From: an uncultured Streptomycetaceae bacterium
GTDB lineage: Bacteria > Pseudomonadota > Gammaproteobacteria > Burkholderiales > SG8-41
Direction: 5' to 3'
Length of the DNA: 53,726 nucleotides
Assembly (NCBI GenBank): GCA_964476235.1
Contig: CAYYZZ010000001.1
Span: 1-53,726 of the forward strand
Under the pieces are notes generated by a model. That model had not been told where the DNA came from, did no database searches, and saw only the letters and a list, made by a program, of their open reading frames with translations. Below are positions 27,012 to 43,475 of the stretch, in pieces. The position numbers were made by a program, and so were the translations under genes. Within the stretch, counting starts at the first letter, position 1. Every line of letters begins with the position of its first letter.

Positions 27012-27712
27012 CGATCAAGCTCTATCAGTTCCGGCCCGCGTTCGGGCTGCCGAACGCGAGCCCGTTCTGCATGAAGGTGGAGACCTACCTGCGCATGGCG
27101 GGTCTCGCCTTTGAATGCCCGCGCGGCGGCGATCTGCGCAAGTCGCCGAAAGGCAAGATGCCGTACATCGAGGATGAAGGCGCGGTCGTCGCGGACTCCT
27201 CTTTCATCATCGATCACCTGAAGCGCAAGTACGGCGATCCGCTCGACTCGCACCTCGACGCCGCCGGCCGTGCGGCCGCGCTCGCGGTGCAGCGCCTGTT
27301 CGAGGAAAACACTTACTGGGCGGTGCTGTATTTCCGCTGGTTCGAGGAGGCGGGCTGGGCGCTCACGCGCGAGGCTTTCTTCGACTGGATGAAGCCGCCG
27401 CTCAGGTGGATCGTGCCGATGGTCGCCCGGCGACTGGTGCGAAAGGAGCTGTACGGCCACGGCATGGGGCGGCACACGCGCGAGGAGATTGTCGCGATCG
27501 GCATGAAGGATCTCACCGCGGCCGCCGATTTTCTCGGAGACAAGCCATTTTTCATGGGCGCGCAACCTTCATCGCTGGATGCGACGGCGTACGCCTTTCT
27601 CGCCAATGTGCTGTGGGTGCCGGTCGAATCACCGCTCAAGGCACACGCGCAGCAATACCCGCCGCTGGAAGCCTACTGCCGGCGGATGAAGGAACGGTAC
27701 TACAAGAAATGA
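27008..27712 (+). CDS. glutathione S-transferase family protein
   Basis: The GTG start overlaps the preceding stop (GTGA). KLYQFRPAFGLPNASPFCMKVETYLRMAGL is a thioredoxin-like GST N-domain, followed by a helical C-domain. Confidence 0.75.
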   Translation: MTIKLYQFRPAFGLPNASPFCMKVETYLRMAGLAFECPRGGDLRKSPKGKMPYIEDEGAVVADSSFIIDHLKRKYGDPLDSHLDAAGRAAALAVQRLFEENTYWAVLYFRWFEEAGWALTREAFFDWMKPPLRWIVPMVARRLVRKELYGHGMGRHTREEIVAIGMKDLTAAADFLGDKPFFMGAQPSSLDATAYAFLANVLWVPVESPLKAHAQQYPPLEAYCRRMKERYYKK

Positions 27713-27795
27713 TGAATGCGAAATGATGAATGCTGAACAGAGGCCGCCAGTCGTTTACTTCATTTCATCATTCATAATTCATCGTTCATCATTCC
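27706..27795. repeat. inverted heptamer array (unit GAATGAT/GAATGCG; arms TGA-phased / TCA-phased)
   Basis: Left arm is AAATGAT GAATGCG AAATGAT GAATGCT. Right arm is TCATTTC ATCATTC ATAATTC ATCGTTC ATCATTC. The arms contain the stop codons of the convergent GST (27710) and MFS (27789) genes. Confidence 0.85.
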
Positions 27796-29036
27796 TGGAT
27801 AATTCCCAGCTTCACGTAGATCGGCCGGATGTGGCTGCGTAGCTCGGGCAGCCGCCGCCACAGCCAGAGCGCGGTGAGCATGCAGGCGAGGCCGCCCGCC
27901 GCGAGCGTGTGCGTGGCGCCGATCCAGGATGCCGCCGCCCCCGCGGCGAGACTGCCCAGCGGAAACATGCCGAGGAAAGCCACGACGAACATGCCCAGCA
28001 CGCGCCCGCGCATGCGGTCGTCGACGATGGTCTGGACGATGGTTGATACGCCCATTGCCACGGTCAGCGCGGTCAGGCCGACGATCGCGATCATGGCGAG
28101 CGATAGCGCGAACGAGGTCGAGTAGGCAAACACCACCAGCGCGGCACCGGCGGCGCAGGCCGAGGCGGCAATCCAGTTCATGAGGCCGCGCACGTCCTTG
28201 CGCGAAGCGAGCAGGAGCATCCCGGCTATGCCGCCCAGGCCGGCCGCGCCGATCAGGAAACCGAGCGTGTCCGCACCGCCCGCAAAAACTTCCGCGGCGA
28301 AGATCGGCATCAGTGTCTGGTACGGGCTCGCCATGAAGCTCACCACGGCCACGGCGGGGAAGAGCAGGCGCAGCGGCACGGAGTTCCAGGTGTAGGCGAT
28401 GCCTTCCTTGAGGCTGCCCCATATCGAGAACGAGGCGCGGGGACGTGCGGTGGGCGTAACCGTCATCATCATCAGTGTCGCCACCGCCGCGATCTTGCTC
28501 ACGCCGTTGACGAGAAAGCACACCGCCTCACTGGAGGCGGCAATCAGCAGGCCCGCGATGGTGGGGCCGAGCATACGCCCGCCGTTCTGCATCAGCGCGT
28601 TGAAGGCGATGGCGCTCGGCAGGTCCTCGCGGGCCGGCACCATCTCGGGCGTGAAGGACTGCCGCACCGGAACATCGACCGCCATGATGACGCCGAAGAA
28701 GCCGGCCATGACGACGATGTGCCAGACCTCGATTGCGTCCGAGTAGGCGAGCGCGGCGAGTGCGAATCCCGGCACCATCGCCGCGGCCTGGGTCCAGAGC
28801 AGGAGCTTTCTGCGATCGACGCGGTCGGCCCACAGGCCGCCGAATGGGGCGAGCACGAGGATTGCGATCTGGCTTGCGAAGCCGGTAACGCCCAGCAGCC
28901 AGGCCGAGCCGGTCAGCCGGTAAACCAGCCAGCTCATGGCGAGATGCTGGATCCAGTTGCCCAGGACGGCGAGCGACTGGCCGTAAAAGAACAGCCGGTA
29001 GTTGCGGTGGCGGAACGCGCGCAGCGAGTGGATCAT
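27789..29036 (-). CDS. MFS transporter
   Basis: 415 aa with about 12 hydrophobic helices and an MFS-type N-terminus (FRHRNYRLFFYGQSLAVLGNW). Confidence 0.85.
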   Translation of the reverse strand: MIHSLRAFRHRNYRLFFYGQSLAVLGNWIQHLAMSWLVYRLTGSAWLLGVTGFASQIAILVLAPFGGLWADRVDRRKLLLWTQAAAMVPGFALAALAYSDAIEVWHIVVMAGFFGVIMAVDVPVRQSFTPEMVPAREDLPSAIAFNALMQNGGRMLGPTIAGLLIAASSEAVCFLVNGVSKIAAVATLMMMTVTPTARPRASFSIWGSLKEGIAYTWNSVPLRLLFPAVAVVSFMASPYQTLMPIFAAEVFAGGADTLGFLIGAAGLGGIAGMLLLASRKDVRGLMNWIAASACAAGAALVVFAYSTSFALSLAMIAIVGLTALTVAMGVSTIVQTIVDDRMRGRVLGMFVVAFLGMFPLGSLAAGAAASWIGATHTLAAGGLACMLTALWLWRRLPELRSHIRPIYVKLGIIQE

Positions 29037-29048
29037 CTTTTGATGATG

Positions 29049-29195
29049 CGTGACTGGTACAGCGTGACTGATGCTACGTGACTGGTACAGCGTGACTGGT
29101 GCAGCGATGTTCGCTGTTCAACAACGCCTATAAGCCACGCCTCGTCAGTCACGATTTATCAGTCACGCCCTATCAGTCACGTTGCTTCAGTCACG
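29049..29195. repeat. phased inverted array: 4x GTGACTG and 4x CAGTCAC, each with 14-nt period
   Basis: GTGACTG lies at 29050, 29064, 29078 and 29092. CAGTCAC lies at 29146, 29160, 29174 and 29188. Confidence 0.9.
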
Positions 29196-29200
29196 CTTCA

Positions 29201-41610: not shown

Positions 41611-41626
41611 TGACCAAAGGGAACAC

Positions 41627-42643
41627 ATGAAAATCTACTACGACAAAGACGCTGACCTCTCGCTCATCAAGCGCAAGCACGTGGCCATCATCGGTTACGG
41701 CTCGCAGGGGCATGCGCATGCGAATAACCTAAAGGATTCCGGCGTCAAGGTGACCGTGGGCCTGCGCAAGGGCGGTGCATCCTGGAACAAGGCCAAGAAT
41801 GCCGGGCTCGCCGTGAAGGAAGTGGGGGGCGCGGTGAGGGGCGCGGATATCGTGATGATCCTGCTGCCGGACGAGAATCACGCCCAGGTCTATTCCGAGG
41901 AAATCGAGCCCAACATCAAGAACGGCGCGACGCTCGCGTTCGCCCACGGCTTCAACATCCACTTCAAGCAGATCGAGCCGCGCGCCGACCTGGACGTCAT
42001 CATGATCGCGCCCAAGGGACCCGGCCACCTGGTGCGCTCGACCTATACCCAGGGCGGCGGCGTGCCGTCGCTGATCGCGGTGGCGCAGAATCCGTCCAAG
42101 AAGGCCCGCGACATCGCGCTGTCCTACGCCGCTGCAATCGGCGCAGCGCGCGCCGGCGTGATCGAGACCACTTTCCGCGAGGAGTGCGAGACCGACCTTT
42201 TCGGCGAGCAGGTGGTGCTGTGCGGAGGGCTCACGGCGCTGATCCAGGCCGGCTACGATACGCTGATCGAGGCCGGTTACGCGCCGGAGATGGCGTATTT
42301 CGAGTGCCTGCACGAGGTCAAGCTGATCGTTGACCTGATCTACGAGGGCGGCATCGCCAACATGCGTTACTCGGTTTCCAACACCGCCGAGTACGGCGAC
42401 TTCACGCGCGGACCCCGCATCGTCAACGAGCAGACGCGCGCGGAGATGAAGAAAATCCTGCAGGAGATCCAGACCGGGCAGTTCGCCCGGGAATTCATCC
42501 TGGAGAACAAGGCTGGCGCGCCCACGCTGAAGGCGATGCGCCGCATCAGCCAGGCGCATTCGGTCGAGACGGTCGGCGCGAAACTGCGCGATATGATGCC
42601 GTGGATCAAGAAGAACCGGCTGGTGGACCAGTCCAAGAACTAG
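41627..42643 (+). CDS. ilvC: ketol-acid reductoisomerase
   Basis: 338 aa starting [14 protein letters not shown], with [13 protein letters not shown]. Confidence 0.96.
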
Positions 42644-42738
42644 GATTGAGTTATTAGGATTGAGGATTGAGCCAAGCATGAATACAAAAGATAACTCGCG
42701 GGCGGAACTCGATCCTCAATCCTCGATCCTCAATCCTG
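42643..42738. repeat. inverted heptamer array (unit GGATTGA)
   Basis: GGATTGA GTTATTA GGATTGA GGATTGA on the left. GATCCTC AATCCTC GATCCTC AATCCTG on the right. The loop and right arm lie inside the psd reading frame. Confidence 0.85.
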
Positions 42739-43382
42739 CGGTCCGCTATCCGCACCCGATCATCGCGAAGGAAGGCTGGCCGTTCATCGCGGCGGCGGTT
42801 GCGGCCGCGGCAGCCACGCACTGGATCGCCGGCGCCTGGTGGGCGGCGCCGTTATGGCTGGTCACTGCCTTCATGGTGCAGTTTTTCCGGGATCCGCCGC
42901 GAGCGATCCCGCAGGAGTCGAAGGCGGTGCTTTCTCCAGCCGACGGCCGCATCGTCGCGGTCGAGCGCGCGCGCGATCCCTATCTCGAGCGCGATGCGCT
43001 CAAGATGAGCGTGTTCATGAACGTGTTCAACGTTCACTCCAACCGCAGCCCGGTGGACGGTGAGATCCGCGATGCCTGGTATCACCGCGGCAGCTTCTTC
43101 AATGCCGCCCTGTCCAAGTCCTCGCTCGAGAACGAGCGTGCTGCGCTGTGGATCAAAACACCGGGCGGGGCGGACGTAACCTGCGTGCAGATTGCCGGTC
43201 TCATTGCGCGCCGCATCCTGTGCTACGCGAGAACCGGGCAGCGGCTCGCGCGCGGCGAACGCTACGGTTTCATCCGCTTCGGCTCGCGCGTGGATCTTTA
43301 CCTGCCACCCGACTCGCGGCCGGTTGCGTCCATGGGCGACAAGGTCTATGCCACCGAAACGATACTCGCCACACTGCCGTAG
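42678..43382 (+). CDS. psd: phosphatidylserine decarboxylase proenzyme (short form)
   Basis: [14 protein letters not shown] and [14 protein letters not shown] (G-S self-cleavage context). The only in-frame start upstream of the conserved core is ATG 42678 (or TTG 42660), inside the repeat element. Confidence 0.85.
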
Positions 43383-43392
43383 AGTACCAAGG

Positions 43393-43475
43393 CGTGATTC
43401 GTGATTCGTGAATCGTGATTCGTGAATCGCATGATCGCCCCGGTCTTTTTCACGACTCACGACTCACGACTCACG
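43393..43475. repeat. inverted heptamer array (GTGATTC/GTGAATC x5 vs ACGACTC x3)
   Basis: Read directly. It lies between the psd stop (43380) and the pssA start. Confidence 0.85.

Follow-up and report, generated by a model that had tools for sequence, protein, structure and literature searches.

The STRR heptamers of heterocystous cyanobacteria (CCCCAGT, TTGGTCA and CAACAGT) are tandem, intergenic repeats which can extend RNA helices such as P12 of the RNase P RNA, and the REP, BIME and REPIN sequences are hairpins of 3' untranslated regions (UTRs) and inter-cistronic spacers, often arranged as inverted pairs, which stabilise the upstream mRNA and dampen read-through. In Xanthomonas, (GGGANTN)n heptamer repeats number about 185 per genome, are most commonly of four units, and are strongly intergenic (Rehm 2015, PMC4692102). 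[quoted passage not shown] The TAACTGA repeats of Beggiatoaceae, cyanobacteria and Bacteroidetes stop all three reading frames in their forward orientation and can therefore overlap ORF ends by no more than 18 nt, and in some cases overlap upstream stop codons (MacGregor 2015, PMC4679880). According to the summary of Mrazek 2007 given in the same paper, the heptanucleotides of the LSSR5-11 class (long simple sequence repeats with units of 5–11 nt) characterise large-genome non-pathogens, Burkholderia among them, no class of long repeat is commoner than the heptanucleotides in Burkholderia, Xanthomonas and cyanobacteria, and polymerase slippage has been proposed as their cause. Here we describe eight inverted arrays of tandem 7-nt units located between positions 27706 and 43475 of a 53,726-nt stretch of DNA from an uncultured member of the Burkholderiales from soil or groundwater (contig CAYYZZ010000001.1; the full stretch is referred to as the window). 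These are a new example of a kind of repeat already published for Xanthomonas, Burkholderia and cyanobacteria and not a new kind of element, and we favour, with a little more belief than doubt, the view that they are slippage-born heptanucleotide-repeat hairpins which survive only at the 3' ends of genes, where they probably behave as REP-like mRNA hairpins.

The eight loci were first pointed out in a preliminary description made from the DNA letters alone, and this inventory was borne out when we searched the window with Tandem Repeats Finder (TRF) and an in-house lag-7 autocorrelation detector. TRF reported a period of 7 or 14 at seven loci (both arms at six and the right arm alone at 33192), and the lag-7 detector, which supplied the left arms of the 33192 and 41533 elements, found matches at all eight (the right arm at 41533 was read by eye). 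The detector made 17 matches compared to 0.75 in shuffled sequences, and all 17 were inside the eight loci with the rest of the 53.7 kb empty. Each locus has a left arm of about 4–5 slightly degenerate 7-nt units, a spacer of 10–36 nt, and a reverse-complement right arm, with the 29049 element reaching about eight heptamer lengths per left arm in a 14-nt phase. The G-rich arm is placed first in seven of the eight elements, and only at 41533 is this polarity reversed. The arms are AT-richer than their surroundings, as had been claimed (GC content of 0.21–0.59 compared to 0.61–0.69 for the flanks), although a spacer whose GC content exceeds that of both arms is found in six elements only, the exceptions being 29049 and 42643. 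All ten of the stop codon positions quoted earlier are correct, and Pfam confirms the identity of all ten flanking genes. The suggestion that units are locus-specific was overstated, as GAATGAT/GAATGCG is common to the 27706 and 37146 elements and GAGTGTT is common to 32673 and 33192, where the likeness includes a run of about 23 nt with one mismatch. Elements with a common unit have unrelated spacers, and no consensus extends across the eight beyond these two pairs. Rfam 15 gave no matches in the whole window at the gathering threshold, and BLAST of the largest element against 72,556 plasmids returned no match.

The distribution of the elements within the window is far from even. Among the non-divergent spacers of at least 30 nt, the eight that hold elements are consecutive, and the 20 others in the window are empty (P ~7e-6). 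This cluster coincides with a conserved block of core genes (valS-holC-pepA-lptFG...ilvIHC-psd-pssA), and the signalling and accessory genes which flank the block are without arrays; some of the array-free spacers have ordinary GC-stem plus T-run terminators instead (e.g. ~13600–13650, 14140–14175 and 47205–47245). According to our gene map, each element takes up a whole spacer, beginning 0–10 nt past the stop codon of one gene and ending either inside the stop codon of the other or 11–16 nt short of the next start codon. That the arrays hug stop codons, as the preliminary description emphasised, is true and at the same time uninformative, because the spacer consists of the element and start codons are adjoined as well.

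A more informative test of placement was provided by relatives. A holC-anchored scan of species-representative genomes produced 80 loci, all of which are from metagenome-assembled, uncultured Betaproteobacteria/Burkholderiales (with a best HolC identity of 89%), and a second, metagenome scan anchored on the end of ilvC added 17 more contigs (L085–L101). Heptamer arrays were found in about half of the 80 loci, with 139 arrays in 119 kb of intergenic DNA and 26 in 1162 kb of coding DNA, making them about 50-fold denser outside of genes. In the array-bearing loci, and with orthologous sites pooled, arrays are found in 25 of 59 convergent spacers and 54 of 199 co-directional spacers compared to two of 91 divergent spacers, and when only spacers of 60–250 nt are considered these become 19 of 36, 52 of 145 and none of 59, respectively. 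This establishes the non-random association with gene 3' ends which adjacency to stop codons alone could not. The polarity seen in the window is also retained: amongst paired elements, 25 of 26 5' arms are G-rich (positive GC skew) and 26 of 29 3' arms are C-rich (negative skew), and on the sense strand 70 of 92 stop-adjacent arrays are G-rich and 35 of 46 start-adjacent arrays are C-rich.

Arrays in the relatives were found at junctions which also have them in the window (pepA|holC, holC|valS, lptG|RDD, ilvH|ilvC, ilvC|psd and GST|MFS) and with different units, including GTGACTC, GATGAAT, CGTGAAT, GTGAACG, GTTCCGG, GGATTCG, AGGATGA, GGGTGAA, CTCCTCA and AAGTTTC amongst others, and the expectation that the architecture would persist at orthologous junctions while the unit sequence changed was therefore met. 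Well-sampled 3'-end junctions are 35–62% occupied within the array-bearing clade, with 9–15 unit families per site, and two divergent, promoter-bearing junctions have arrays in one of 36 and one of 31 cases. It should be noted that many close relatives have no element at all at a given junction, and that even when compared with L001, the closest species-level relative, the window has kept two elements (89 and 95% identity) and differs at five junctions.

The preliminary description had also held that one arm of every element carries TGA once per unit and the other TCA, so that each reading frame of either strand meets this stop codon. A different frame is indeed used by each of the TGAs at 29051, 29065 and 29079, and three-frame TGA on both strands is found in the 29049, 32673 and 43393 elements, though not in the other five (nine of the 16 strand readings have it), and the once-per-unit rule does not hold for GAATGCG at 37146, GTTAAAT at 33192, GCCGAAC at 41576 or alternate CTCGATC units at 42708. 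When the arrays of the larger set were compared with unit-permuted controls, TGA periodicity was found to be enriched on the inward-read strand: three-frame TGA is found on the G-rich inward strand of 48 of 139 arrays compared to 15.6 after unit-column permutation (24 of 80 compared to 8.0 when one array is taken per distinct unit), and stops are depleted on the outward strand. No trinucleotide is more over-represented than TGA in the 80 distinct consensus units (36 compared to 15.5 expected, z 6.1); TAA occurs as often as expected and TAG less often (5 compared to 15.5), the latter matching a genome-wide avoidance of TAG in non-array spacers (odds ratios of 0.44 for TAG and 1.07 for TGA). TGA periodicity is above the compositional prediction, and this enrichment is a property of TGA alone and does not extend to stop codons as a group.

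These findings bear on the hypothesis first put forward for the window, in which the arrays are selected gene-end modules whose inward arm is a frame-independent stop and whose hairpin is a bidirectional terminator or insulator, with the architecture kept and the sequence left free. The restriction to 3' ends and the inward TGA excess with its stop-depleted outward strand fit this explanation, as do the polarity, which sets TGA before ribosomes arriving from both sides, and the combination of 35–62% occupancy and 9–15 unit families per site. We nevertheless consider it unlikely, given that TAA does not share in the enrichment, that three-frame TGA on both strands is limited to the three window elements mentioned above, that many close relatives do without an element at the same junction, and that TGA is missing from 44 of the 80 distinct units (e.g. 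GGATTCG, GGTTCCG and GAAGGGG). Since these 55% of units and the Xanthomonas GGGAATC repeat lack it, a frame-independent stop cannot define the class. A filter explains the TGA excess no less well, in that an array abutting or overlapping the end of an ORF is harmless only if every frame is stopped quickly, as has also been pointed out for the TAACTGA repeats (PMC4679880).

TGA could instead be of interest as part of a binding site. Units with TGA loosely conform to GG, TGA and two variable bases, and a lineage-specific protein (e.g. a nucleoid, translational or RNA-chaperone factor) might recognise periodic NNTGANN heptamers in DNA or RNA, with the inverted layout suiting a dimeric or cooperative binder. 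The prominence of TGA among the trinucleotides and the recurrence of unit families at separate junctions of one genome (27706/37146 and 32673/33192) are both compatible with this, and a comparable proposal has been made for the TAACTGA repeats (PMC4679880). However, over half of the 80 distinct consensus units are without the core, near-identical strains may have elements of unrelated units in place of one another at a single site, and no candidate protein was found among the window proteins scanned, and we think that this explanation has very little chance of being correct.

Comparison of individual junctions provides some indication of how the elements arise. At ilvC|psd, array-free relatives have a strong ordinary hairpin (GGTGAAAGGCGG...CCGCCTTTCGCC or GGTGAAAGGCGGTTTG...CAAACCGCCTTTCGCC, -38 to -51 kcal/mol), followed by a U-rich tail in two of the three examined (L028 and L069), and in array-bearing relatives GTGAAGG, GTGAACG or GTGAATG units are found on both arms at the place of this hairpin. 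The ilvC|psd arrays look like the amplified stem of an existing hairpin. GTGATGA arrays extend from the psd start ATGAGTGATGAG, and GTGACTN arrays start at the pepA stop context AAGTGAC. We considered whether the stop codon might be the general seed for arrays, which would fit GST, MFS, and pepA in L001, L002 and L022, and rejected this because at some junctions the gene ends in TAG. Unit number is also variable, with eight left units and four right units in L086, and with L093 differing from L085 by the addition of exactly two units.

Whole elements are also replaced between near-identical strains. The conspecific L081, which matches the window at 97.7% identity across 7.3 kb, has identical pepA|holC and holC|valS elements, yet at lptG|RDD it has an unrelated element with GTGAGGA units and another spacer, with the break points at the two stop codons. 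Similarly, L083 is 100% identical to the window in nearly every 100-nt bin over 6.5 kb and has identical ilvH|ilvC and psd|pssA elements, but at ilvC|psd has a direct GTGAYGA array in place of the window element and encodes a different psd N-terminus. Cassettes of about 100 nt have been exchanged without flanking donor substitutions. Two types can be recognised at ilvC|psd, with type A an inverted GGATTGA hairpin and type B a direct GTGAYGA array with the psd N-terminus M(S/G)DESKTL..., and these are interleaved on the phylogeny of the flanking sequences such that opposite types are found in pairs with 100, 98, 96, 96 and 93% flank identity. We note that distant relatives begin psd directly at M..YPHP (cf. 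window 42641–42749), so in the psd extension of 23–28 amino acids, repeat and spacer DNA has become new coding sequence. The alternative ilvC|psd allele has no copy in the window or the 101 loci, and we rejected a silent donor cassette, as used in antigenic variation, as its source. An assembly artefact was also rejected, as the elements were recovered repeatedly in assemblies made independently by NCBI, JGI and Logan and four of those in the window are unchanged in L081 or L083 (see below). Look-ups through ilvC and MFS found no further conspecific contigs. Purifying selection was considered for the window and L011 pepA|holC elements, which are 93% identical compared to 55–60% at four-fold sites, and was dropped as the raised identity spans about 350 bp including the coding flanks; a tract of this kind points to recombination and not constraint. 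Considered together, the arrays are real, lineage-specific, excluded from promoter-bearing spacers, consistent in polarity, variable in copy number, and replaceable.

Two further explanations were considered. In the first, the elements would be MITE- or REPIN-like hairpins inserted by a transposase, with the arrays serving as terminal inverted repeats. The ancestral gap at lptG|RDD is only 6–12 nt, and the elements found there are therefore insertions; presence/absence variation, wholesale replacement between strains, and the unit families common to several sites could be read in the same way. On reading the sequences, however, no conserved termini, internal sequence or target-site duplications were seen, the elements share nothing with one another outside of the units and have no flanking direct repeats (by eye), those with a common unit have unrelated spacers, and similarity to sequences from relatives is limited to orthologous sites or shared units. 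In addition, local seeds can be recognised for arrays, slippage alters the number of units, no transposase was detected in the 30 window proteins scanned (from 53.7 kb of genome), and these genomes also contain a true MITE-like repeat of quite another appearance. To this explanation we give the least credence of all. In the second, the arrays would be selected gene-end modules instead of by-products of slippage, combining a frame-independent stop in the inward G-rich, TGA-rich arm with an insulator or translational-coupling hairpin; selection would keep the architecture while whole elements were exchanged as cassettes, with several ancient alleles per junction (such as the ilvC|psd types) maintained within species across lineages, and this we regard as rather improbable.

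All eight elements fold as long imperfect hairpins in both RNA (-21.9 to -75.7 kcal/mol, z -1.3 to -8.4) and DNA (z -1.7 to -8.0), as the preliminary description had anticipated, and a typical stem has 6 bp and one mismatch per unit. The proposed role as a bidirectional terminator has fared less well. No U-tract follows the outer stem of any of the eight in a terminator scan, and consensus terminator and promoter scans of the window gave counts no higher than the shuffle expectation with none at the outer stems. The genes on either side run in the same direction for five or six elements (ilvH-ilvC-psd-pssA and pepA-holC-valS, together with valS-MFS, a less conserved junction), and the start codon of psd is enclosed by one element. 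The data do not support a canonical bidirectional terminator, because the elements are without a U-tract and several are inside likely operons. This also counts against the selected module, as strong termination within ilvH-ilvC, psd-pssA and pepA-holC-valS would be harmful and one element includes both the start codon and coding sequence of psd; in its favour, the ilvC|psd array hairpin is located where relatives have a terminator-like hairpin.

Slippage-generated hairpins tolerated only at gene ends, which the preliminary description had listed as its alternative, fit these data better, and we suggest the following sequence of events. A local 7-nt seed, often the stem of a gene-end hairpin or a stop or start codon, would be amplified by replication slippage, after which the second arm would come to mirror the first and unit number would drift, with whole elements swapped between strains by recombination through the conserved ends of the flanking genes. 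Arrays persist only in spacers with a gene 3' end and are excluded from promoter-bearing divergent spacers, as the placement counts show, and they extend as far as a stop codon on one side and a ribosome-binding site on the other. Once transcribed as part of a 3' UTR or inter-cistronic spacer, an element would place an imperfect stem of about 25–35 bp right after the stop codon in the manner of REP/BIME sequences, and this might act as a barrier to 3' exonucleases, a partial damper of read-through, or an insulator between cistrons. Between co-directional genes, the hairpin may pair the region beside the downstream start, as at psd, and couple initiation there to termination upstream; the geometry at psd would have the downstream ribosome-binding site occluded until termination upstream relieved it. 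The inward G-rich arm, which is often TGA-rich, could halt a ribosome in any frame within three units, allowing arrays to abut or overlap the ends of ORFs without producing longer proteins, which would make the stops a survivorship filter and not a primary function.

A number of points weigh against this interpretation. Neither slippage nor the requirement for a hairpin explains why the G-rich arm is almost always the first, and the 2–3-fold TGA excess and the conserved site occupancy hint at more selection than a tolerated by-product requires. Two elements fold barely better than shuffled sequences (z -1.3 and -2.2), and selection for pairing is not demonstrated by covariation: pairs are mostly invariant or broken at holC|valS (six sequences, three compensatory pairs) and in the ilvC|psd type A elements (nine sequences, one compensatory pair), with a positive, unfavourable covariation term in both. 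We infer all of the RNA-level effects proposed above, and the slippage origin of 7-nt units is taken from a second-hand account of the literature (Mrazek 2007 via PMC4679880). The gene map is the product of a crude in-house gene caller, and the placement and unit counts are not independent because orthologous sites and related units were pooled.

The coordinates of the eight elements and their arms are listed in Table 1, together with a small stem-loop in the spacer of the psd|pssA element which is the sole terminator-like motif inside any of the eight. The pepA|holC, holC|valS, ilvH|ilvC and psd|pssA elements are each found unchanged in L081 or L083.

Table 1. Positions and characteristics of the inverted heptamer arrays in the window.
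Feature	Positions	Location	Strand	Left arm	Spacer	Right arm	Remarks
Element 1	27706..27795	convergent spacer GST/MFS		27706-27738 (GAAATGA/TGAATGC, 4.7 units)	27739-27759	27760-27795 (TTCATCA type)	arms contain GST stop (27710-12) and MFS stop (27789-91); 89% identity to orthologous L001 element
Element 2	29049..29195	valS stop/MFS start	- (both genes)	29049-29106 (GCGTGACTGGTACA, 14-nt phase)	29107-29135	29136-29195	most stable hairpin of the eight (RNA -75.7 kcal/mol, z -8.4)
Element 3	32673..32760	holC stop/valS start	-	32673-32704 (GAGTGTT x4.6, perfect)	32705-32727	32728-32760	holC stop (32752-54) within right arm; 95% identity in L001, identical in L081, one-base difference in L082
Element 4	33192..33287	pepA stop/holC start	-	33192-33224 (GAGTGTT/AAATGTT)	33225-33254	33255-33287	pepA stop (33286-88) at edge; GTGACTC units at this site in L001, 93% identity in L011
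Element 5	37146..37223	convergent spacer lptG/RDD		37146-37180 (GAATGAT/GAATGCG)	37181-37190	37191-37223	right arm includes last 6 sense codons and stop of RDD gene (37205-07); weakest hairpin (z -1.3)
Element 6	41533..41610	ilvH stop/ilvC start		41533-41560 (GTTCAGC/GCTCAGC, TCA type)	41561-41575	41576-41610 (GCTGACA/GCTGATA)	sole window element with C-rich arm first; L002 orthologue has matching polarity
Element 7	42643..42738	ilvC stop into psd		42643-42671 (GGATTGA)	42672-42707	42708-42738 (CTCGATC/CTCAATC)	psd start ATG (42679-42681) in spacer, i.e. hairpin loop; right arm translated as part of psd N-terminal extension, no other start before conserved YPHPII motif
Element 8	43393..43475	psd stop/pssA start		43393-43429 (CGTGATT/CGTGAAT x5.3)	43430-43449	43450-43475 (TCACGAC x3.7)	stem of 6 bp + 1 mismatch per unit; sequence identical in L083
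Small GC stem-loop	43433..43450	apical spacer of element 8	+				GATCGCCCCGGTC (5-bp stem) then TTTTT

A number of other features were noted in the window and in the contigs from relatives. The valS ORF next to element 2 (29201–32659, - strand) encodes 1152 amino acids with the class-I synthetase domain from residue 200, and the usual start (MALAKSFEP) is about 190 codons in, preceded by an in-frame, stop-free N-terminal extension, especially at 32090–32659; similar sequence is found upstream of valS in L036, L037 and L047. The MITE-like repeat mentioned earlier is about 300 nt in length (19162–19468 and 34777–34961) and is bounded by the hairpins CTAGCAGCCTGTCGGAC...GTCCGACAGGCTGCT and GGAGTTTGTCGGCCCTAAGTCCGACAAACTCC, with related hairpins between the divergent genes pepA and lptF; in L002 the lptG|RDD spacer is taken up by a homologous copy, and in L041 by a similar element which has diverged further. 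A REP-like palindrome, GCATGAGGGGAGTATCCCCTCAT, is present in two spacers (15875–15951 and 46114–46195), in the second case with a period-11 repeat beside it at 46139–46167, and another period-11 repeat (GTCAATAAGGC-like) is found at the edge of a convergent spacer at 48781–48823. A perfect 12-nt repeat, TTGCTGCCCTCA, is present 2.7 times in a divergent spacer at 26163–26194. Two inverted copies of the motif GAACCTATCTCAATA, separated by about 110 nt, are located upstream of the gene at 24541 (24387–24540); the motif is found once more upstream of the gene at 52957 (52848–52956), and may be an operator. Finally, the first 24 nt of L082 (Logan contig SRR28961284_126711) are an Illumina adapter remnant, TTCAGACGTGTGCTCTTCCGATCT, and an 8-nt match to an Illumina adapter at GTGACTGG was judged to be coincidental.

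How the elements stand with respect to known systems can now be considered, and we note that in many large bacterial genomes no long simple repeat is commoner than the heptanucleotide type. The preliminary description had presented locus-specific inverted heptamer arrays phased as three-frame stops as new for a GC-rich proteobacterium, yet inverted arrays beside stop codons are already published for Xanthomonas (PMC4692102) and three-frame stops had been noted for the TAACTGA repeats (PMC4679880), so the elements are catalogued at the level of kind. What has been added here is the excess of TGA on the inward strand and the cassette-like replacement of elements between near-identical strains, which rewrites the N-terminus encoded by psd. 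Given a cultured relative or metatranscriptomes, the junctions would also provide natural allelic series in which the effects of hairpins on termination, mRNA stability and translational coupling might be compared.

Likenesses to several other systems are partial. The STRR sequences have three fixed units, none of which matches any window unit, and the host here is a betaproteobacterium. The arrays are found in the same locations as REP, BIME and REPIN sequences, in 3' UTRs and inter-cistronic spacers and away from promoters, but REPs have a genome-wide consensus of about 20–40 nt and are moved by RAYT transposases, whereas the elements here have no common consensus and are built of tandem 7-mers. 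Intrinsic terminators are likewise hairpins found right after a stop codon, and the ilvC|psd array is at the place of the terminator-like hairpin of relatives, but in contrast to these, the elements have no U-tract and their stems are long, AT-rich and mismatched with loops of 10–36 nt. The TAACTGA repeats are also intergenic, 7 nt in length and TGA-containing, but are of a single unit, almost always direct (with one inverted case), and mostly located just upstream of start codons. As far as the summary of Mrazek 2007 allows, the LSSR5-11 heptanucleotides have a comparable host, as Burkholderia belongs to the same order as the genome described here.

The best agreement is with the GGGAATC repeats of Xanthomonas, which is also a GC-rich proteobacterium. 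Every placement rule that we measured agrees with those reported for that genus: tandem 7-nt units numbering about four, an excess in non-coding DNA, convergent pairs with the G-rich strand first, a consistent orientation with respect to stop and start codons, few between divergent genes, and the same junctions occupied with varied length and sequence. The two differ in that Xanthomonas has one genome-wide consensus unit without a stop codon and with a G-tract which forms G-quadruplexes, while here the unit changes from junction to junction, many units carry TGA, and most have no G-tract. None of the window units GAATGAT, GTGACTG, GAGTGTT, GTTCAGC, GGATTGA and CGTGATT contains GGG, and the G-tract of at least three per unit needed for a G-quadruplex is absent from these and from most units of the relatives. 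As the published placement rules hold here with many unrelated units that have no G-tracts, the G-quadruplex is unlikely to be the common denominator of these repeats, which would instead be the 7-nt period, the polarity and the hairpin that the elements described here have in common with those of Xanthomonas.

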